In this document: positions 5,385 to 60,719 of the stretch, in pieces
Layout: the number at the start of each line of letters is the position of its first letter
Numbering within the stretch: position 1 is the first letter of the stretch
NCBI GenBank assembly: GCA_028714495.1
Contig: JAQTMH010000001.1
Coordinates: 179,814 to 243,813, forward strand
DNA length: 64,000 nucleotides
Direction: 5' to 3'
DNA from: Patescibacteria group bacterium
GTDB taxonomy: Bacteria > Patescibacteriota > Patescibacteriia > JAHIZJ01
Program-made: the position numbers and the translations under genes
Notes under the pieces: model-generated
The model's database searches: none
Seen by the model: the letters and a program-made list of their open reading frames with translations, nothing else
What the model was told of the DNA's origin: nothing

Positions 5385-5834
5385 ATGCCGACTGCTAAAA
5401 CGAAAAAAACCATCAAAAGATCGCAGGCGCTAAGAGTTCGGGTAGTTAAAGAAGATCGATTGACCCGGCCTGAAGCTAAGGCTAATCCCCCGACCCTGAT
5501 CCAAGCACAAACCCAGGTGAAAAAAGAAAATAAAATCGAAAAACCGGGGCGAGTCTTTAAGCAAAAACAATACGCCTGGATTGGCGCCACTGCCAGTTTT
5601 GTGATTATCATGGTTGCCTGGCTGACCCTGGGTCAATATTTGCCCGGTCGCCACAGGTCAAATGAGGCTGATCAATCTCTAAAATCGCTGGGTAATTTAT
5701 TTTCAAAAATCACCACTGATTTTGATCAACACGCTGAAGATATCCGTTCGCAGATTTTTGGCGTAAAGAATTCTGCCAACAGCGAAGAGATTGTAAACCT
5801 GGAACAGCGCGTCTTCCCCCAATTTAATAAATAA
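5385..5834 (+). CDS. hypothetical membrane-anchored protein
   Basis: Lys-rich N-terminus then one TM (WIGATASFVIIMVAWLTLG). Confidence 0.35.
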   Translation: MPTAKTKKTIKRSQALRVRVVKEDRLTRPEAKANPPTLIQAQTQVKKENKIEKPGRVFKQKQYAWIGATASFVIIMVAWLTLGQYLPGRHRSNEADQSLKSLGNLFSKITTDFDQHAEDIRSQIFGVKNSANSEEIVNLEQRVFPQFNK

Positions 5835-5861
5835 AATCCTAACGTCAGTTCAATAAATCTT

Positions 5862-8309
5862 ATGGCTGAATCAATCGGAAAAGTAGCGCCCCGCCAAATT
5901 ACCGAAGAAATGAAGGAGTCTTATCTTGACTACGCCATGTCGGTAATAGTCGCCCGAGCCTTGCCTGATGTCCGCGACGGCCTGAAACCGGTTCACCGCC
6001 GCATCCTTTACGCCATGTGGGGCATCGGTCTCAGGCCCGGTTCAAAATTCAGAAAATCCGCCACGGTTGTCGGCGAAGTCTTGGGTAAATACCATCCCCA
6101 CGGCGACACCGCGGTTTATGATTCAATGGTCAGGCTGGCTCAAACCTTTTCTCTCCGCTATCCGCTGGTAGAGGGCCAGGGCAATTTCGGTTCAATAGAC
6201 GGGGATAACGCCGCGGCCATGCGCTACACTGAATCTCGTCTGGCCAAGATCTCCGAGGAGATGCTTTTTAATATTGAGAAAAAGACGGTTAATTTTATTC
6301 CAAACTACGACGGCTCCCAGGAAGAGCCCCAAGTCATGCCCGCCAGATTGCCCAATCTCTTGCTCAATGGCACTATGGGCATCGCCGTGGGCATGGCTAC
6401 CAACATCCCGCCTCATAATCTGGGCGAGGTGGTCGACGCGATAATCTGCCTGATTGATAATCCGAGTGCCTCGATCGAAGACTTGATGGAATTTGTGAAA
6501 GGACCCGATTTCCCGACCGGCGCCCAGATTTTCGGACTGAGCGACATCAAACAAGCCTATGCCACCGGCAAAGGCAGTGTGGTGATACGGTCAAAGGCAG
6601 AAATCGTCGAAGATAAATCAGGCCGCTTCAATATCATTGTCACCGAAATCCCCTACCAGGTAAATAAATCTCAGCTTCTGGAACACATTGCCAATCTGGT
6701 CCAGGAAAAGAAAATCGACGGCATTAAAGACCTGCGCGACGAATCTGACCGAGACGGCATCCGAATCGTGATCGAACTGAAAAAAGAAGCCTATCCAAAA
6801 AAGACTCTTAACCGCCTTTTTGACCTGACCCAGCTCCAGGATACTTTTCACTCCAATATGCTGGCTTTGGTCGACGGGATCCAGCCAAGAGTCCTAACTC
6901 TGAAAATGATTCTCGAGGAATATCTGAAGCACCAGCAAGAGGTGACCCGGCGCTATTTGACTTTTGATCTGGAACGGGCCAAGGAACGCGCTCACGTGCT
7001 TGAGGGCCTGAAAATCGCCCTGAAACAACTTGACCCGGTCATCCGAACGATCAAAAAGTCGAAAGATCGCGAGGAAGCAAAAGTAAACCTGATGAAACGC
7101 TTTCGACTGAGCGAGATCCAGAGTTTAGCCATTCTGGAAATGAAGCTTTCCCAGCTCGCCAACCTTGAGCAGCAAAAAATCTTGGATGAACTCAAGGAAA
7201 AGCTCAAACTGATCGCCGAATTAAAGTCTCTTTTGGCCTCGCCAAAAAAGATGCTGGCAGTGATAAAAAAAGACTTGCTCGAAATGAAAGCCAAATTCAA
7301 TAATCCCCGGCGCACCCAGGTCTTCCCCAACCCCGTCGATAAATTCACCCAGGAAGATCTGATTCCCAATGTCTCGACAATTGTTATGACTACTCGCGAC
7401 GGGTATATCAAACGAGTCGAACCGACGGCTTTCAAGACCCAGGGTCGCGGCGGCAAAGGCGTAATCGGCCTAACTACCAAGGAAGAAGACATGGTGGAGC
7501 ATTTCTTCACCACCATGACTCACGCCGACCTTCTCTTTTTCACTACCAAGGGCCGCGTTTTCCAGATGAAAACCTACGACATTCCCCAGGCCAGCCGCAC
7601 GGCTAAAGGCCAGGCGATCGTCAACTTTTTACAGCTCCCCAGCGATGAAAAGATTTCTGTGGTCCTGCCGCTTTCCGAACTGGGCGAATACAAATATCTC
7701 ACCATGGTGACCCGCGGCGGGGTGATTAAGAAAGTTGATATCGAAGAATTTACAAAGGTTCGCCGCTCCGGCCTCATCGCCATCCATATCAAACCAGGCG
7801 ACACGCTTGAATGGGTCAAGCCGTCAATCGGCCAGGATGATCTGATTCTGGTCAGCCGCGAGGGCAAGGCCATTCATTTCCGGGAAAAAGACGTCCGGCC
7901 CATGGGCCGAAGCGCCGCCGGCGTCCGCGGCATCAGGCTGAAAAAGGGCGATGAGGTAAGCGGCATGGATGTAATTCCTCAGGGAAAGATTCAAATTCAC
8001 GAACAGCTTTTGGTCGTAATGGAGAACGGCTTTGGCAAAAGGACCAATTTAAAGAATTATCGGATCCAGGGACGCGGCGGCACAGGCATTAAAACAGCCC
8101 ATATTACCCCGAAAACCGGTAAGATTGTTTCAGCCTTTATCGTCAATGCCAAACTGGAAAAAGAAGATTTAATAATCATGTCTGGCAAGGGACAAGTCAT
8201 CCGACTGCCCTTGAAATCCATCTCGGTTCTTGGCCGGGCAACCCAGGGAGTGCGTTTGATGCGCTTCTCAGAAGCGAATGATAAGGTCGCGTCAGTTACC
8301 TTCATTTAA
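5862..8309 (+). CDS. gyrA: DNA gyrase subunit A
   Basis: Canonical GyrA N-terminus: [34 protein letters not shown]; C-terminal beta-pinwheel repeats. Confidence 0.95.
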
Positions 8310-11987: not shown

Positions 11988-12048
11988 ATTCAACTAGCAA
12001 TTAATTATCCAAAAGCTGATTTATTCATGGCTTTTTTTATTTGGATCC

Positions 12049-12146
12049 ATGGAAGAAATTCAGAATTCAGAATTAAGAAGTAATAATTATTGAAGTCCCG
12101 CAACGGGACAACCGACCTTCTTCCTTCTGCATTCTGAATTATAAAT
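12049..12146. repeat. AT-rich palindromic element (gaattcagaatt family), copy A, left flank of pyrF/pyrE cassette
   Basis: gaagaaattcagaattcagaattaagaagtaataattattga-[gtcccgcaacgggac hairpin]-...cttctgcattctgaattataaatt; termini inverted-complementary. Confidence 0.6.
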
Positions 12147-12281
12147 TGTGTTCATTGGTCATACCAAGTTCCGCCCTTGGGGGATATTTGACCCCTTGTT
12201 TTATTTTTGTTAAGCTTTGGCCGATGTTGCACTCGAATGGTCATTGAAATAAAGGCGTCTTCAACAAAAAGGGGGTAGCCA

Positions 12282-13960: not shown

Positions 13961-14133
13961 GAGTTAATACAAGTAACGAATAATAGAAAATAATTTGGCA
14001 ATTATATCTTCAAATCCACCGCAAATAACCCGCCGTAAGCCCCAGATATTACCCAGCATGCAATAAGCTAGTTAAAAATGAAAATTGATAATGCTAATTA
14101 AATGCCAACCGGAGGCGGGTATTTGGGCCAACT

Positions 14134-14245
14134 GAAGAAATTCAGAATTCATCCCCGACTAGATCAGGGATCAGAAGTAATAATTATTGAACCCGCCTAT
14201 GGCGGGATACCTTCATTCTTACTTCTGAATTCTGAATTATAAATT
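14134..14245. repeat. AT-rich palindromic element (gaattcagaatt family), copy B, right flank of pyrF/pyrE cassette
   Basis: gaagaaattcagaattcat...gaagtaataattattgaa-[cccgcctatggcggg hairpin]-...acttctgaattctgaattataaattg; shares termini and core with copy A. Confidence 0.6.
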
Positions 14246-14738
14246 GGTACTAGATAAACTCATTTGATCCTAAACAATAAATTTTATTACCTAATCTTAG
14301 CCAAAATACCCTGTTGATAACTTATTGGCTCTAGGCATTGACAATTTGTCCGACATCTTCTATGCTTGGGGGCTTAGAAGACAAAACAAAATCTTTACAA
14401 TATAATATTAATAGTATCCGTGAGGCGATGAACTGCAGCCTGAATCTGGTCGCTTTCCCCCTAGAGTTTATTAAACTTTTGGGGGCGGGCTGCGGGGAGC
14501 TAGTAGCGAAACCGACATGGCGGAGGAAGTCCTTCGATACCAAAAACTGCCGCCGCCTCACGCCCAAGAGGCGTTTTTTGTTGGCCTGACCTTATTACCG
14601 GTTGCCTTTAGTGAAATACCTAAAGACAGCCGGTTTGTAAGGTTACTAAGCTCTTTGACAACACGGTGTAAGCGGAACAAAACGCCGAAATACAGCGCGA
14701 AGTTGTTTTCGGGGTTACCACAAAAAGGAGGACCGGTC

Positions 14739-15452
14739 ATGAAGCGCCTGTTTGTATTCTGTTTGGTGTTGACGTCCGTTCTGCTGGCCACGACGGCGAG
14801 TGGAGCGGATCGAGCCTTGGTTGAACGTACGCTGGTCTGGGTGGAGGGCAATCCCATTCCGCCGGACAGCACGCTCAATTCGTCAGGCTATCAATGGGGT
14901 GTTGCTCAAGACTCCCTGATTACCGTCAACGGATTCGTTGCCCAGGTTGCGCGCAAGCCGCCGGTAAAGGCCAAGGTGTATGCTGACACGCCCTACGGCC
15001 GTATGTGCGAGCGGGCTTTTGCCGCGGCAGTTTCGGCACGGGACCAGGGCAAGAACGATTGGGAAGCCGCTCAGGCTGGCGCGGCGGTCATGGAGAACGA
15101 ACGCAGCTTAGTCCGCTCAGCCAGTGTGATCGAGGGTGGATGGGAAGTCGAGTACACCAACGGCGAATCCGAATCATTCGAGCTGGGTCCGCCCGAGAAC
15201 AGAGGATCGCAAACGCCCCAAGAGAAGGCGGCGTTCTACCAGGAAGTTACCGACCAGGGCAAAATGATTGTGCTCGCATGGAATGGGGAGTGCAGATGGT
15301 TTCTGACACCGGCCAGCAGGGTGCTGTGGAACGAGCAGATTCTACGAGTATGGGACAACGAGCCGAACCCGCCTGGCCCTATGCCGCCACAGTTGGTGAG
15401 CCTGTTCTGTGATCCTACGCCCCTCAACCGCGAGAGCCACAAGGAGGAGTAA
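14739..15452 (+). CDS. secreted hypothetical protein (G+C-rich island)
   Basis: aaaaaggagga RBS; signal peptide MKRLFVFCLVLTSVLLATTASGA; track ORF starts earlier at 14517 but signal peptide and RBS favour 14739. Confidence 0.5.
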   Translation: MKRLFVFCLVLTSVLLATTASGADRALVERTLVWVEGNPIPPDSTLNSSGYQWGVAQDSLITVNGFVAQVARKPPVKAKVYADTPYGRMCERAFAAAVSARDQGKNDWEAAQAGAAVMENERSLVRSASVIEGGWEVEYTNGESESFELGPPENRGSQTPQEKAAFYQEVTDQGKMIVLAWNGECRWFLTPASRVLWNEQILRVWDNEPNPPGPMPPQLVSLFCDPTPLNRESHKEE

Positions 15453-21478: not shown

Positions 21479-21612
21479 CCCATTGACAAGGCAACATCAA
21501 TTGTTTAATATCACTCTAGCCATCAATGTGCTCGATATAGCAATTCAAAATTAAAAACGCAAAATTAAAAACCTTCATTATTGAATTCTAAATTTTTAAT
21601 TTTACATTCATC

Positions 21613-22122
21613 ATGTTAATGCTTCGACTCTCACCAACCGGCAAACGCGGTCAGAAATTCTTCCGCCTGATTGTCTCAGAAAAAACCAAGGACGTCTTCG
21701 GCAAATACCTGGAGCTTTTAGGCAACTACAATAACCACAAGTCCCCGGCTGAAGCAAATCTGAAGGTTGATCGAATAAAATACTGGCTGTCCCAGGGCGC
21801 TCAGCCTTCCCCTACTGTCCATAATCTTCTGGTTGATCAAAAAATAATTACCGAACCAAAAGTCGCCGCCTGGAAACCGAAGAAGAAAAAGGACGAAGAA
21901 GGGGCACCCAGGGCTGAAGGTGATAAAAAACCCGAAGCTTCGGCTGAAGTCATAAAAGAAAAACCAGCTGAGGCTCCGGTCGAAACGCCAGCTGAAAAAC
22001 CAGAGCCTAAGCCGTCGCAAACAAAACCTGAAGCGCCAGCTGAAAAACCAGCGGAAAAGAAATCCGAGGCCCCGGTGGAAAAACCCACTGAGTCCGCTCC
22101 GGAAAAGTCGAAAAGTGAATAA
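21613..22122 (+). CDS. rpsP: 30S ribosomal protein S16 with long K/E/P/A-rich C-terminal extension
   Basis: MLRLSPTGKRGQKFFRLIVSEKTKDVFGKYLELLGNYN matches S16 N-terminus; about 90-aa low-complexity tail. Confidence 0.85.
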   Translation: MLMLRLSPTGKRGQKFFRLIVSEKTKDVFGKYLELLGNYNNHKSPAEANLKVDRIKYWLSQGAQPSPTVHNLLVDQKIITEPKVAAWKPKKKKDEEGAPRAEGDKKPEASAEVIKEKPAEAPVETPAEKPEPKPSQTKPEAPAEKPAEKKSEAPVEKPTESAPEKSKSE

Positions 22123-22140
22123 CCGTTTGAATTTAAATAA

Positions 22141-22318
22141 TTAGGACTTACGCGTTTGAGACAAGTTCGAGGAAAAATGCGAGGATTTTGCGAGGCGTAG
22201 TCAAACTACGACGAGCAAGGACGCAGCATTTTGACGAAGAAATTGGCCAAAGCCGCTTACTGACCCGGCTTCGCCGGGTCAGTAAGCGGCAAGCGCGTAA
22301 GTCCTAATAATCACGAAG
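22141..22318. mobile_element. MITE-like element with 13-14 bp terminal inverted repeats, copy 1
   Basis: ttaggacttacgcg ... cgcgtaagtcctaa termini; internal hairpins cgtagtcaaactacg and gcttactgacccggcttcgccgggtcagtaagc; second copy at 51253-51425. Confidence 0.6.
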
Positions 22319-22457
22319 GGGGTATTGACACCTCCTTTGTTTTTTATATAATACAAATACATAGCCACGGCTGTATTCCCTCTCAAAACTAAAGCGAGAG
22401 TCGAAGTCGAACAGCTTTACCCGGCTATCGAACGTTACAATTAACTGTACACGAGCA

Positions 22458-22781: not shown

Positions 22782-22860
22782 CACTCTCTTGAGAGGACAA
22801 AAGCCGCTGAGTATGATACAATTCATCACAGCGGTTTTTGTATATTAAGTCGATGTAAAA

Positions 22861-22950
22861 TTCAAAATTAAAAAGGAAGAATTATTGTACCTGCCCTTGG
22901 CAGGTTCCAACATTATTACTTCTAAATTATTAATTCTGAATTGATTTTCC
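22861..22950. repeat. divergent member of AT-rich palindromic element family (copy C)
   Basis: aattcaaaattaaaaaggaagaattattgtacctgcc-cttg-ggcaggttccaacattattacttctaaattattaattctgaatt; GC hairpin in AT palindrome. Confidence 0.4.
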
Positions 22951-25265: not shown

Positions 25266-26770
<1,505 letters not shown>

Positions 26771-27476: not shown

Positions 27477-27570
27477 TTATCAAACTGCATAATCAAATTA
27501 TAACCATTAGTTTATCCATCGTTCTTGATTGGTCGGGGATCGCGGACTCGAACCGCGGACCTCTCGCTCC

Positions 27571-27846
27571 CCCGCCCGACTGCCATGTAATATTTCTGTC
27601 AAACTATTGGTTGGGACGGCGAGCCTCGGATTATAATCCGAGGGAAATTGCTGTCTTCCCGCACCGAGTCGGGGTGCGCGGACTTGAACCGCGGACCTCT
27701 CGCTCCCAAAGCGAGCGTTCTAGCCAACTGAACTACACCCCGACTCGAGGCAGGACGTGCTTCTGCACTACGCCCCGACCAATCGCTGGACTGAACAATT
27801 GTAATTATCAAAGTATAGAGCAACGTAAGCAGCCAGGGCGGGCGGG
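27571..27846 (-). other. 276-nt intervening sequence in tRNA-Pro carrying tRNA-Pro copy B; termini cccgcccg...cgggcggg
   Basis: begins cccgcccgccctggctgc and ends ggcagtcgggcggg in tRNA orientation; no ORF; no recognisable group I P/Q/R/S elements by eye. Confidence 0.5.
27669..27742 (-). tRNA. tRNA-Pro(TGG), intact, no encoded CCA, nested in the insertion
   Basis: cggggtg ta gttc agttggcta gaac g ctcgc tttggga gcgag aggtc cgcgg ttcaagt ccgcg caccccg a. Confidence 0.8.
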
Positions 27847-28046
27847 CAAAGCGAGCGTTCTAGCCAACTGAACTAATCCCCGATGAAAAAATCCCATGTT
27901 TGGGAAAAGCTTTTCTTGTTTTTATATTTTAAGCCTGTTTTTATTACCCGCTGGTGCCGAGGGCCGGAATCCCGCACCACGCAGGGTGCGGGACAAGTCG
28001 AACCAGCATAATTATGAAATGGGCCTCTTTAGTAATTCCGCCCAAA

Positions 28047-28225: not shown

Positions 28226-28258
28226 AAGTGCCCACGGCACCAGCGGGAAATCAATATT

Positions 28259-28299
28259 TGGTGGGCGATCCAGGAGTCGAACCTGGGACCTCGTCATTA
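28259..28299 (-). pseudogene. tRNA 3'-half fragment (Ile-like), CCA encoded, no matching 5' half
   Basis: taatgacgag gtc ccagg ttcgact cctgg atcgccc a cca; closely resembles the 3' half of tRNA-Ile(GAT) at 28396-28472 but with a different acceptor. Confidence 0.45.
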
Positions 28300-28334
28300 C
28301 CCGCCCGACTGCTCCGCACTCGGAGGCGGGCGGG
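28300..28334. repeat. 35-nt palindromic element sharing termini with the tRNA-Pro intervening sequence
   Basis: cccgcccgactgctccgcactcggaggcgggcggg; termini cccgcccg/cgggcggg; same cccgcccgactgc start as the 276-nt insertion; abuts the tRNA 3' half in its anticodon-loop position. Confidence 0.5.
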
Positions 28335-35788: not shown

Positions 35789-35899
35789 ACTGTCAATAAG
35801 ATTAATCTAGAACAGTTCTCCGCCCCCTAATAAAAAATCTAATAAACGGCGGATCCCCGCCAGCCGTCGGGCAGGCACCTTTGGCGGAGATGGACTTTA

Positions 35900-35936
35900 C
35901 CCCGCTGCTCGCGAGCGGCGGGGCCTACCCGCTCCA
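35900..35936 (+). repeat. GC hairpin fused to copy of tRNA-Gly(TCC) 3' acceptor end
   Basis: ccccgctgctcgcgagcggcgggg + cctacccgctcca; 12-nt direct repeat ctacccgctcca with the tRNA 3' end 147 bp upstream. Confidence 0.5.
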
Positions 35937-37888: not shown

Positions 37889-37974
37889 TGGTGCCCAGGG
37901 CGGGACTTGAACCCGCACCCTCTTGCGAGGCTAGGCCCTCAACCTAGTGTGTATACCAATTCCACCACCTGGGC
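37889..37974 (-). tRNA. tRNA-Leu(GAG), long variable arm, CCA encoded
   Basis: gcccagg tg gtgg aattggtat acac a ctagg ttgaggg cctag cctcgcaagagggt gcggg ttcaagt cccgc cctgggc a cca. Confidence 0.8.
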
Positions 37975-38240
37975 AGGTAGATTACCTCTTTACATTATTT
38001 AAAATAACAAATATTAGTATTATACCAACCCAGAACCACGAGGGGGTTCTGGGCCCCGCACCTAACATGGTGCGGGGTTCCACCACCTGGGCAGGTAGAT
38101 TAGCCCTTTACCTTATTTGAAATAACAATATCTGCAACATACCGATTTAAACCACGAAGGTTCTTGTTACCTATCATTAATATTACGAGATTCCGACAAG
38201 CCCTGAACCCAACGTGGTTCAGGGCACCACCTGGGCAATA
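37975..38240. repeat. two degenerate repeat units upstream of tRNA-Leu, each a GC hairpin plus copy of the tRNA-Leu 5' end
   Basis: ccaccacctgggca(g/a) recurs at about 37962, 38081 and 38226; hairpins ccagaacc-acgaggg-ggttctgg, ccccgcacc-taacatg-gtgcgggg, ccctgaaccc-aacg-tggttcaggg. Confidence 0.5.
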
Positions 38241-48715: not shown

Positions 48716-48758
48716 TGGAGCGGGAGACCCCGCCGCTCGCGAGCGGCGGGGCGACCTC
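48716..48758 (-). repeat. copy of tRNA-Gly(GCC) acceptor ends with T-arm replaced by GC hairpin
   Basis: tggagcgggaga-ccccgccgctcgcgagcggcgggg-cgacctc versus genuine tggagcgggagacgggattcgcacccgcgacctc at 48834; same hairpin as at 35900. Confidence 0.5.
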
Positions 48759-50776: not shown

Positions 50777-51232
50777 TTAGAAGATGCTCTCTTGAAAACG
50801 AAATTCAATTTTGTCGCCGGCCTGAACTAACTGCTGATCAGCTCCGACCTGGGCTGACTCTCCATTGACATACAAAATCCAATACTTGTTATTTGTGCCA
50901 TTTTTCTGGCCGTTGATGCTTTCGATCAATACACCGGTGCTGTAGGATTTGGTTTCGTAGGCGAAAGATTTAAGCTTTGCCGCTCGTTCCAGAGTTTGAA
51001 GCGCGGTTTGGCCAGGCACCGGAGAGATGTTTTGATTGGTGATGTCATTGCCGTCATCGATAACCAGCTGAACATAATAACCCTGAGTTTCCGCTCCAGC
51101 TACCTTGCCTCGATCTTGAGGCTTTAGAGCGGCTAGTTCTGGTTGGGGTAGAGCTGACATGCTGTACATTAGAACCCCAGACACCAGGGCTGAAACGACT
51201 AACACTAACATTGATAATTGTGATTTTTTCAT
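50777..51232 (-). CDS. DUF4430-like secreted protein (B12-uptake-associated family)
   Basis: signal/TM N-terminus; YYVQLVIDDGN...WILYVNGESAQVGADQQLVQAGDKIEFRF pattern. Confidence 0.55.
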   Translation of the reverse strand: MKKSQLSMLVLVVSALVSGVLMYSMSALPQPELAALKPQDRGKVAGAETQGYYVQLVIDDGNDITNQNISPVPGQTALQTLERAAKLKSFAYETKSYSTGVLIESINGQKNGTNNKYWILYVNGESAQVGADQQLVQAGDKIEFRFQESIF

Positions 51233-51252: not shown

Positions 51253-51425
51253 TAGGATAGGACTTACGCGTTTGAGCCAAGTTCAAGGCAAAATGCGAGG
51301 ATTGGGCGAAGCCGTAGTGGAACTACGGTGAGTCCAACCGCAGCATTTTAACGCAGAAATTGGCCAAAGCCGATTGCGGGCGGGCTCTGCCCGCTCGAAA
51401 ATCGGCAAACGCGTAATGTTCTAAA
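51253..51425. mobile_element. MITE-like TIR element, copy 2, inserted between the riboswitch and its gene
   Basis: taggacttacgcgtttgagccaagttcaagg...cgcgtaatgttctaa; collinear with copy 1 at 22141-22318, with different (compensatory) internal hairpins cgtagtggaactacg and gcgggcgggctctgcccgc. Confidence 0.6.
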
Positions 51426-51439
51426 TAAAAATCCCGAAA

Positions 51440-51630
51440 CCTTCGGGATGGGCCATCTTTTCGACCGAAGATTGGCAATATTTAATAGGGTATCCTGACT
51501 TATGGAGGAATTGCTCGTTGCGCCTTCCCACCCAGCCCATCACGATAGGCTGGACAGTGGCTTTTCACAACTTGCTTCTCCACTTACAGTGGCGGGACCG
51601 CGCTGGATTTTCACCAGCTTCCCCTTATAT
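51440..51630 (-). promoter_or_regulatory. cobalamin riboswitch
   Basis: minus-strand reading ggaagctggtgaaaatccagcgcggtcccgccactgtaagtggagaagc...aagtcaggataccc; diagnostic gguGAAAAUCC / CGGUCCCGCCACUGU core and B12-box-like AAGTCAGGA. Confidence 0.75.
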
Positions 51631-51785
51631 GTCTAATTGTTAATAAACTGCGACTTGACCTGTTGTTTTTTAATTCTAGTCTAAGCGTATTATGATGTCA
51701 AATTAGAATTCAAAATTCTAAATGTTAAATCATTGTTTCCGCCTCTCGACCCTGCTCTAGGCGGCTTCCTTCATTTTTAATTCTC

Positions 51786-59165: not shown

Positions 59166-59468
59166 GGGTCGGTTATTTTTTATTCCTTTTTAATACTCTA
59201 AGCAGCTTGATTTTAATACTCCAGAGCTGTCAGTAGTACCTGTTTGCTGACGTTTCAGTTAAAAATCCTCCTAGATTTTCTACCTGATACGATAATTATA
59301 GCACAAAGTTGGCTAATTTTCAAGTCTTTTTCCCATTTTAAAAAATATCCTGCGCGACACAGGAGTCGTGTATGACAAGAAATTAAAAATTTAAATGAAT
59401 AATGAAATTAGTTCCGCGTTGCGGAATACAATAATTCTTCCTTCATAATTCTTAATTCTTCATTGTCT

Positions 59469-60719
59469 TCAATGGGTAGCGCAAGTCATGCAGGGATCAT
59501 AAGCCCGAATCAGTTTTTTAATGCTGGCGTGGCTGGCTGAATCATTGGTCTTGCCTTTTAAGAAAATCTTCAAATCAGCTTCCAGATTTGCCAGCATCTG
59601 GACAGTCGGGGTAATGATATTGCACTGACGGATAATTCCGTTTTTGTCGATTTCATAATAGTGGTAGAGCGTGCCGCGCGGGGCTTCAACCGCGCCCACC
59701 CCTTGGCCGGCTTTGAGTTTGTAGGCCTTGGCCGGCTGGGTCAATTCGCGCCTGGATAGGGGCTTTAAAAGCTTTTGAACTTCTTCAAGCGAGTGCATTA
59801 TCTCAATCAGCTGAGCGTAAATATTGTAGAAGTTGTTATAAATCGGCCGCGGGGGCAGGTATTTCAAGATTGATTTGGCCTTTGGATTCAGATTCTTTTC
59901 ATTCAAATGCAGTCTGGCCAGCGCGCCAACAAAATAACTCTTAGTTTTCCAAAAAGCTCGTTTCGACATTTCATATGGCCGCTGGATTTCCGTGACATCG
60001 TGTTCAAACTTACCGACTGGGATTTTTAAACCCTGGCTGGAAACGATCTGGTCGCCTTGATAAAAAGTGTATTTATGGCTATCCGTCAGAGCGTAAAATT
60101 CAGTCGGCCGGTTAAATTCGGGAAATTTTACTTTCCGATATACCTCTACCAAAGACCTGGCTTGATTGATTACCCGGGGAATGTCTTGAAGGATCTTTTT
60201 TATCTCGGCCTGAGTGGGAAGTTTTGTAAAGCCTCCAACTTTTGTCCTGAGCGGATGAATGCTCCGGCCGCCGAGCGTGGCAATCAGCCGGTTTCCAAAA
60301 TCACGGATTTTTAAGGCGTTAACCGTAGCTTCAGGAAAGCGCTTGCCCAGATCAAAGGCGTGCTTAAGGCCGAAATAATCACCCAAGGCCATAAAATAAG
60401 CGTGGAGGGCGTGACTTTGAATTGTCTGGCCCAATTCCATCACCTCGCGCAAAATAATATTCTGTGGAGAGAGCGTGATGCCCAGGGCGTTCTCCAGGGC
60501 TTTCAGCGAACAAAGGTTGTGCACCACCGGGCAAACTCCGCAAATCCTGGCGGTAATGAGCGGCGCCTCTTCGTAAGAGCGGCCAACTAAAATCGCCTCA
60601 ATCAAGCGGGCGCCTTCGTGAGTTTTTATCTTGGCTGATTTTATATCGCCGTTTTCAAGATCCGCTTCCAGACCGCCGTGGCCTTCGATTTTCGCGATGT
60701 GTTTTATGGTAATTTTCAT
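59469..60719 (-). CDS. NiFe hydrogenase large (catalytic) subunit, group 3-type
   Basis: N-terminal RICGVCPVVH and C-terminal DPCMTCATH metal-binding motifs. Confidence 0.9.
   Translation of the reverse strand: MKITIKHIAKIEGHGGLEADLENGDIKSAKIKTHEGARLIEAILVGRSYEEAPLITARICGVCPVVHNLCSLKALENALGITLSPQNIILREVMELGQTIQSHALHAYFMALGDYFGLKHAFDLGKRFPEATVNALKIRDFGNRLIATLGGRSIHPLRTKVGGFTKLPTQAEIKKILQDIPRVINQARSLVEVYRKVKFPEFNRPTEFYALTDSHKYTFYQGDQIVSSQGLKIPVGKFEHDVTEIQRPYEMSKRAFWKTKSYFVGALARLHLNEKNLNPKAKSILKYLPPRPIYNNFYNIYAQLIEIMHSLEEVQKLLKPLSRRELTQPAKAYKLKAGQGVGAVEAPRGTLYHYYEIDKNGIIRQCNIITPTVQMLANLEADLKIFLKGKTNDSASHASIKKLIRAYDPCMTCATH

Follow-up and report, generated by a model that had tools for sequence, protein, structure and literature searches.

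The window considered here, a 64-kb (64,000-nt) stretch of contig JAQTMH010000001.1 from a Patescibacteria group bacterium, carries two copies of a short intergenic repeat that we describe as a miniature inverted-repeat transposable element (MITE). Copy 1 (22142–22306, plus strand; 165 nt, of a 166-nt subfamily) lies in the 3′ region of rpsP, which encodes ribosomal protein S16 (21613–22122, plus strand; Pfam PF00886) and whose stop codon is 19 nt before the start of the element. Just 3′ of it, on the same strand and preceding khpA, is a terminator-like hairpin (22313–22340) overlapped by the khpA promoter, a perfect TTGACA-16-TATAAT (22325–22352). Copy 1 is therefore upstream of this promoter, and it has the orientation of both rpsP and khpA. 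The khpA promoter and leader are conserved in two relatives (L088 and L089), both without the MITE. The rpsP–khpA spacers of these relatives are syntenic and MITE-free but diverged, with other small open reading frames (ORFs), and no exact pre-insertion site for copy 1 could be aligned in them. Copy 2 (51258–51423, plus strand; 166 nt) is antisense to a minus-strand DUF4430/DUF6580 operon and is located in its leader, between the terminator of a cobalamin riboswitch and the DUF4430 gene (50777–51232, minus strand). The latter is the first gene of the riboswitch-controlled operon, and its start codon is 25 nt from the element. The riboswitch (51468–51659; Rfam RF00174, 88.5 bits) and its terminator hairpin with a U-tract (51431–51449, from a terminator scan) together occupy 51431–51659 of the minus strand; copy 2 directly adjoins the U-tract, and genes for a B12-dependent ribonucleotide reductase and a corrinoid adenosyltransferase are found upstream of the riboswitch. 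As a first-pass annotation of the window had noted, the copies are oppositely oriented relative to local transcription, copy 1 running along its neighbours and copy 2 against them. No promoter or terminator was predicted inside either copy, and all predicted sites were outside the element. Logan short-read contigs with identical rpsP and khpA genes break off after approximately 29 nt of the element at one side and begin within it at the other, as is usual for repeats present in many copies.

The two copies are collinear, with a mean column identity of 84% (79% by blastn over 170 nt). The first-pass annotation had placed them at 22141–22318 and 51253–51425; the element is present at both sites, and the terminal repeats set narrower limits. 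In copy 1, the surplus consisted of the target-site duplication and flanking sequence: the element is bordered by ATAAT on both sides (22137–22141 and 22307–22311), as read directly. Its terminal inverted repeats are perfect over 13 nt (TAGGACTTACGCG...CGCGTAAGTCCTA), within a left repeat of TAGGACTTACGCGTTTGAG (22142–22160, plus strand) and a right repeat of GGCAAGCGCGTAAGTCCTA (22288–22306, plus strand). The terminal inverted repeats that had been noted for both copies are perfect in copy 1 and at the left end of copy 2; the right repeat of copy 2 is degenerate (GGCAAACGCGTAATGTTCTA, 51404–51423, plus strand, as read from the sequence), with one inserted T and one C>T change in CGCGTAATGTTCTA. 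Both copies are short (below approximately 300 bp) and non-coding, which is the size expected of MITEs. Copy 1 contains no internal ORF, copy 2 is overlapped only by mechanical ORFs of at most 51 aa, and in the family alignment the sequence variation follows the helices rather than codons. Within the window, the 13-mer TAGGACTTACGCG occurs three times with up to two mismatches, and an internal 17-mer (AGAAATTGGCCAAAGCC) occurs twice against 0.48 expected. A third copy was found in the window neither by repeat search nor by pattern search or covariance model.

Beyond the window, the repeat belongs to a large family. A search of 185,579 species-representative genomes with the 18-mer AGGACTTACGCGTTTGAG returned 85 loci, in about 35 genomes after a few chance-like singletons were left out, and a metagenome scan with the query TAGGACTTACGCGYTTG added at least 120 loci. 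Most host metagenome-assembled genomes (MAGs) were labelled as Doudnabacteria, Moranbacteria/Moraniibacteriota, Saccharibacteria, Liptonbacteria, Magasanikbacteria or ‘Patescibacteria group’; as deposited, six others were labelled Bdellovibrionales or Gammaproteobacteria and five only ‘bacterium’. Pairing of left and right ends in the genome loci yielded 82 elements of 49–227 nt, and the copy count proposed in the first-pass annotation reached 153 distinct elements of 49–260 nt when both scans were combined. Subfamilies of 123, 129/148, 144, 166 and 174 nt differ in their interiors, and mini elements of 49–89 nt comprise little beyond the two ends. One MAG (JBAZQK01) harbours at least 19 near-identical copies of 166/167 nt, approximately 80% identical to the 166-nt type of the window. 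Insertions are nearly always located in transcribed intergenic spacers. Viral contigs scanned with the terminal 17-mer gave no match.

Perfect 5-bp duplications flanked 82 of the 152 elements for which both flanks were readable, and four of five bases matched in 19 more, whereas shuffled flank pairs matched perfectly in 1% of cases. The targets are AT-rich, and the duplications are fixed in length and variable in sequence. They are direct evidence of insertion via a 5-bp staggered cut.

Two arrangements within the superfamily are noted separately. In several loci (L066: 2454–2573, L021: 296–489, L016: 3094–3234, L025: 6784–6925, L043: 542–690 and L078: 1146–1303), the same repeats enclose a second type of cargo, composed of hairpins framed by GTCATYC...GRATGAC and unrelated to the interior of the window copies. 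In locus L005, two different superfamily MITEs (5709–5836 and 6769–6935) flank one gene for a 298-aa membrane protein, and both have TTTAA at the outer left flank; the arrangement may be fortuitous, or it may represent a composite element in the making.

A transposase gene between the same repeats, for which the first-pass annotation had proposed a search, was found in three loci (L096, L145 and L213). The metagenome scan recovered a 1053-bp element (L096, 199–1251) with the ends TAGGACTTACGCGCTTGCC and TAGGACTTACGCGTTTGCC and a single ORF of 328 aa. This ORF matched NCBIfam NF049921, ‘IS701 family transposase’, with 347 bits (E 1e-103) against a cut-off of 250, and it also exceeded the cut-offs of Pfam DDE_5 and DDE_Tnp_1. 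The left repeat of copy 1 shares 17 of 19 bases with the end TAGGACTTACGCGTTTGCC, and its right repeat is the reverse complement of the left end TAGGACTTACGCGCTTGCC. A full-length transposase homologue was present between the same ends in L145, further homologues with one end visible in L140 and L176, and frameshifted copies in L107 and L196. A 1054-bp element in L213 (9925–10978), which derives from the complete 1.09-Mb Moraniibacteriota genome CP064989.1, is flanked by ACAAT/ACAAT. More than 1000 homologues of the transposase were found in the protein collection, mostly on contigs of 1.05–1.3 kb, a length typical of collapsed repeats, and several were named from Moraniibacteriota, Patescibacteria, Parcubacteria or Paceibacterota. 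The terminus TAGGACTTACGCG itself corresponds to the end of the ISAba11/ISMesi2 group of the IS701 family. Two side observations concern related copies. A full-length element with the ends TAGGACTTACGCGATTGG and a 4-bp flanking repeat (L214, 9894–10984; GCA_021646405.1, SOER01000005.1) sits among genes for B12-dependent methyltransferases, and its host MAG is possibly not a Patescibacterium. In L196, an unrelated transposase-like ORF of 258 aa (1459–2235) adjoins the frameshifted IS701-type copy.

The strong hairpins, intergenic sites and orientation bias of the repeats would also suit elements of the REP/BIME type or palindrome-associated elements of the IS200/IS605 type, which depend for their movement on a tyrosine (HUH) transposase with single-stranded hairpins as its substrate. 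Such elements, however, have neither terminal inverted repeats nor target duplications, and both are present here and match a DDE-type IS701 element; this alternative is thus extremely improbable. As an identification of the family it was rejected on the 5-bp duplications, the terminal repeats and a partner of the DDE rather than the Y1/HUH class.

Taken together, the repeats are very probably a MITE, the non-coding passenger of an ISAba11-like insertion sequence of the IS701 family, in agreement with the proposal of a mobile non-autonomous element in the first-pass annotation. The termini are shared, the target duplications are 5 bp long, a transposase gene lies between identical termini and the family is widely dispersed. 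The assignment to the ISAba11 group is based on the tested termini, the length of the duplication and the family of the partner's transposase. In the proposed mechanism, a DDE transposase of approximately 325 aa, supplied by a 1.05-kb element that lies elsewhere and has identical ends, would bind the repeats of roughly 17–19 bp (TAGGACTTACGCG(Y)TTG), excise the MITE and insert it at AT-rich sites via a 5-bp staggered cut, the repair of which would leave the 5-bp direct repeat. We infer mobilisation in trans by such an IS701-type enzyme, and cut-and-paste chemistry is assumed by analogy with IS4/IS701-type DDE enzymes.

Several observations weigh against this interpretation. No transposase gene was detected by tblastn over the 64-kb window. 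Four full-length copies of the autonomous element on short metagenome contigs showed no clean 5-bp duplication, which may reflect chimeric assembly of repeats, and the flanking repeat was 4 bp in one copy (L214) and 7 bp in ISMesi2. Copy 2 has no target duplication, its left (TAGGA) and right (AATAA) flanks being different, and a mobile origin for it would rest on its homology to copy 1 and to the family. Since its right end is damaged and a flanking repeat is missing, copy 2 is an older and probably immobile copy. Among the genome-derived loci, no transposase was found between such ends, and the repeat pairs 0.3–6 kb apart and transposon-like inverted repeats with a duplication in these loci comprised only adjacent MITEs, chance matches and housekeeping genes. 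The partner was missed there because the 18-mer of the scan ends in GAG, whereas the ends of the parent have GCC.

Both copies are predicted to fold stably, with energies of −90.2 kcal/mol for copy 1 (z −11.0) and −87.3 kcal/mol for copy 2 (z −9.7) relative to dinucleotide shuffles. In the predicted fold, the two ends pair into a closing helix, and there are two hairpins, the first of which is long and irregular. The long hairpin, here termed module A, spans about 105 nt just inside the left end and is common to many subfamilies. It was located at 22151–22255 in copy 1 (103.1 bits) and at 51267–51372 in copy 2 (95.4 bits), both on the plus strand, by cmsearch with a covariance model (R1) built from 27 diverse copies. 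Its elements follow in the order P1, G-UUC-GAGG, P2, GAGGA, a variable apical region with a CGUAG...CUACG hairpin, P2′, (G/A)ACGAAGAAAU and P1′. The second hairpin, hairpin B, has the form GCCGCTTACTGACCCGGC-TTC-GCCGGGTCAGTAAGCGGC in copy 1 (22252–22290, plus strand) and, from fold and sequence, CCGATTGCGGGCGGGC-TCT-GCCCGCTCGAAAATCGG in copy 2 (51370–51405, plus strand); its sequence is variable and its base is conserved.

The first-pass annotation had pointed to two pairs of hairpins as compensatory. For the first pair, CGTAGTCAAACTACG and CGTAGTGGAACTACG, this did not hold, as the stem is identical and the loop alone differs. The second pair corresponds to hairpin B, whose sequence does differ between the copies while remaining paired, except that the base GCCGCTT/AAGCGGC is unchanged. 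A real compensatory change had been missed: TTTTGC/GCAAGG in copy 1 corresponds to TTGGGC/GTCCAA in copy 2, with two U-A pairs replaced by G-C. Compensatory changes are plentiful across the wider family, and the alignment suggested as a check revealed genuine covariation in the internal helices. In the genome loci, R1 gave 67 forward-strand matches at approximately 100 bits, against approximately 35 bits on the complement, and module A was present in about 60% of the genome-derived copies. In the alignment of these loci, 96.3% of cells were paired, both sides had changed in 23 of 27 pairs, and the covariation score was 0.53, compared with 0.16 after shuffling of columns and no more than 0.10 with partners slid by 1–3 columns. 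The metagenome loci, which had not been used for R1, contained module A in 26 of the 120 loci listed (ca. 22%), and the 23 aligned matches replicated the result (95.6% paired, 21 of 27 pairs, covariation score 0.48). The shuffle counts should not be read as probabilities, since both alignments were fitted to R1 and their members are related to one another; even so, the difference from the slid controls is strong, and so is the replication. Beside these covarying stems, the internal-loop bases GAGG, GAGGA and ACGAAGAAAT are unpaired and conserved in subfamilies from different candidate phyla. Because the helices have been kept through many compensatory changes and specific unpaired bases have been kept as well, module A is under selection as a folded single strand.

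Paired changes could also arise mechanically, without structural selection, through homogenisation of the two arms (snap-back or hairpin-templated repair) or through co-evolution of transposase-binding ends. A paired change within the terminal repeats themselves (C12-G158 to G-C in L052 and L020; L028 and L005 show intermediates changed on one side), whole-repeat variants altered on both arms (e.g., L010: 4549 and L034: 7140) and the palindromic nature of every cargo type would fit such an origin. Homogenisation, however, would erase asymmetric internal loops, and these remain conserved and non-complementary beside the covarying stems in every subfamily. Arm-to-arm copying does not predict an excess of G.U over A.C, and the helices of module A are not transposase-binding ends, as the parent lacks the module. 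A purely mechanical origin of the paired changes is considered quite improbable, although some homogenisation of the arms may have taken place.

The cargo of the window subfamily, module A together with the variable hairpin B, is foreign to the parent. No R1 match was found in the autonomous copies L096, L107, L140, L145 and L196, and module A is therefore regarded as cargo rather than as a remnant of the parent's ends. In Rfam 15, neither window copy matched at the gathering threshold; with the limit relaxed to E 10, the only matches were fortuitous ones of hairpins to miRNA models, and L010 gave none. The first-pass annotation had considered structure-preserving change unusual for a decaying MITE and a hint of a functional RNA or protein-recognition fold. 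Such change is not unusual in bacterial MITEs, and alone it is no proof of a host function.

What the fold serves was weighed against the other cargo. When the 19-nt ends were removed, the interiors had a median z of −3.4 with module A (n = 86) and −4.0 with other cargo (n = 54), against −0.1 for random segments of the same loci. The superfamily as a whole thus carries hairpin-rich cargo, and this is more indicative of a need of the element than of one specific host function. Because unrelated cargo types are equally rich in hairpins, our preferred explanation, with the balance of probability close to even, is that the fold serves the element itself. It might ease the pairing, in one transposase complex, of ends that are approximately 100–130 bp apart; alternatively, a stable stem-loop might make insertions in transcribed spacers tolerable, either harmless or stabilising. 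A locus-specific host function for the fold is less likely.

Alternatively, module A might be a functional structured RNA (for instance a small RNA that binds a protein, an element acting in processing or stability, or a ribozyme), with the MITE as its vehicle and the conserved loop bases as recognition or catalytic sites. This would add a layer to the MITE interpretation without replacing it. The strong and replicated covariation, the loop bases conserved across candidate phyla, the absence of the module from the parent, the preference for transcribed spacers and the strand-specific model score would all be consistent with such an RNA. So would the wobble usage: on the GAGG...ACGAAGAAAU strand, G.U pairs outnumbered A.C combinations by 69:20 and 29:8. 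Conversely, the lack of any related Rfam family, even at the relaxed E value, and the occurrence of module A in the minority of repeat-bearing metagenome loci given above argue against it, and the equally structured unrelated cargo indicates a general rather than a specific requirement. In addition, the better-pairing strand of module A is mostly antisense to its neighbours (27 vs. 10 among co-directional flanking genes, p 0.008), so the strand that folds better is usually not the one transcribed by read-through, and neither window copy has an internal promoter-like site. On this evidence, a functional RNA appears possible but rather unlikely. A somewhat lower probability is given to the more specific proposal that module A represents a class of structured RNA, or of structured single-stranded DNA, that has not been described before, has a specific function and was spread by IS701-type mini-transposons in Patescibacteria. 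If this were true, the MITE would be a delivery vehicle for a functional fold (a protein-binding platform, processing signal or ribozyme) rather than junk. Its function would then have left signatures in the conserved purine-rich loops, in the wobble usage that differs between the strands and in the biased orientation. The G.U excess and the antisense bias both favour a constraint specific to one strand. The strand bias could derive from an internal promoter, a role at the DNA level or selection against Shine–Dalgarno-like GAGG/GAGGA in mRNA. The antisense bias also sits uneasily with a fold that serves the element, a role that we infer, and no explanation considered here fully accounts for it together with the G.U excess.

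Several further features of the window were observed. The khpA leader extends approximately 105 nt after the promoter (22325–22457 in the window; 2374–2500 in L088 and 2380–2500 in L089) and contains a conserved motif (GTAGCCACGGCTGTA...CGGCTAT..CGTTACAATTAACTGTA). A plausible nested fold of this leader has four pairs changed on both sides, and it has no Rfam match. A second family of intergenic repeats was found at 12038–12148, 14120–14246, 21542–21608, 22847–22943 and 59427–59469. Its members are imperfect palindromes of approximately 90 nt with AT-rich arms (AATTCAGAATTAAGAAGTAATAATTATTGAA ... TTCTTACTTCTGAATTCTGAATT) and a short GC hairpin between them, and one lies between khpA and trmD. 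A GC-rich palindrome (ACCCCGCYGCTCGCGAGCGGCGGGGC) occurs twice, at 35899–35929 and 48722–48752, 12.8 kb apart and with 96% identity. Upstream of the ORF at 14517–15452, a match to the c-di-GMP-II-GAG riboswitch (14412–14526, plus strand) scored 45.2 bits against a gathering score of 40. The window contains a 16S rRNA gene (25266–26770) with no adjacent 23S gene, and 12 tRNA genes. Partial tRNA sequences accompany intact tRNA genes at 27529–27583, 27665–27743, 27847–27883 and 28258–28312 and at 37960–38010 and 38078–38128; the segments 27707–27743 and 27847–27883 are 95% identical, and a 51-nt direct repeat (92%) adjoins the tRNA at 37892–37974. These duplicated pieces may be remnants of integration at tRNA genes.

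In kind, the repeat is a classical bacterial MITE, if one whose folded core is unusually well conserved. Full-text literature searches yielded no paper on MITEs or IS701 elements of Patescibacteria; as far as these searches reach, neither the family nor its conserved core appears to have been described. The genomes of Patescibacteria are tiny and streamlined. That one family spans several candidate phyla, and is present in one MAG in at least 19 near-identical copies, shows that transposition is active in such reduced genomes and that horizontal spread probably occurs in them. Such elements break short-read assemblies, and when located in leaders they can be mistaken for regulatory RNAs, as beside the B12 riboswitch in the window. 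The termini and model R1 provide a direct means of masking or annotating them. Why bacterial MITEs keep their folds could be studied on the strongly covarying core, a well-defined candidate that has conserved loops and that the parent lacks.

Among known systems, the 1.05-kb IS701-family element of Patescibacteria (L096, L145 and L213) is likely the direct parent. It shares 17–19 nt of both ends, the 5-bp duplication and hosts in the candidate phyla with the MITE, and differs in encoding a transposase, in lacking module A and hairpin B, and in bases 18–19 of the repeat, which are CC instead of the AG of the MITE left end. ISAba11 (IS701 family, Acinetobacter) shares the 12-nt terminus TAGGACTTACGC and the length of the duplication. 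It comprises a single ORF within 1101 bp, ends in TAGGACTTACGCA... and ...TGCGTAAGTCCTA, and is flanked by CATAT/CATAT in the copy of plasmid NZ_CP151689.1. In contrast to the MITE, it is autonomous, lacks module A and resides in Proteobacteria, and its transposase is approximately 34% identical to the Patescibacteria enzyme. ISMesi2, an IS701-like element on a plasmid of Allomeiothermus silvanus, has the ends TAGGAGTTACGCAGTTG and CAACTGCGTAAGTCCTA, a terminus (TAGGAGTTACGC) matching the MITE type and a transposase with approximately 40% identity; it differs in being autonomous, in its Deinococcota host and in the 7-bp flanking repeat of the copy examined.

Among non-autonomous elements, Correia (Neisseria), ERIC (enterobacteria), bcr1 (Bacillus cereus group) and RUP (pneumococcus) are likewise non-coding, 100–170 nt long, bounded by inverted ends and inserted in transcribed intergenic regions. 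They form long stem-loops; compensatory changes, and an influence on the processing or stability of mRNA, have been reported for some of them. They have other termini, other target duplications (e.g., TA for Correia) and different or unknown transposases; they are not known from Patescibacteria, and Rfam searches revealed no sequence or model similarity to the window MITE. MITEAba12 of Acinetobacter, a non-autonomous derivative of an insertion sequence, has a weak predicted structure of −24 to −27 kcal/mol (PMC6382973). Both it and the window copies are non-autonomous bacterial elements, and the latter, at −87 to −90 kcal/mol, are predicted to be far more strongly folded.

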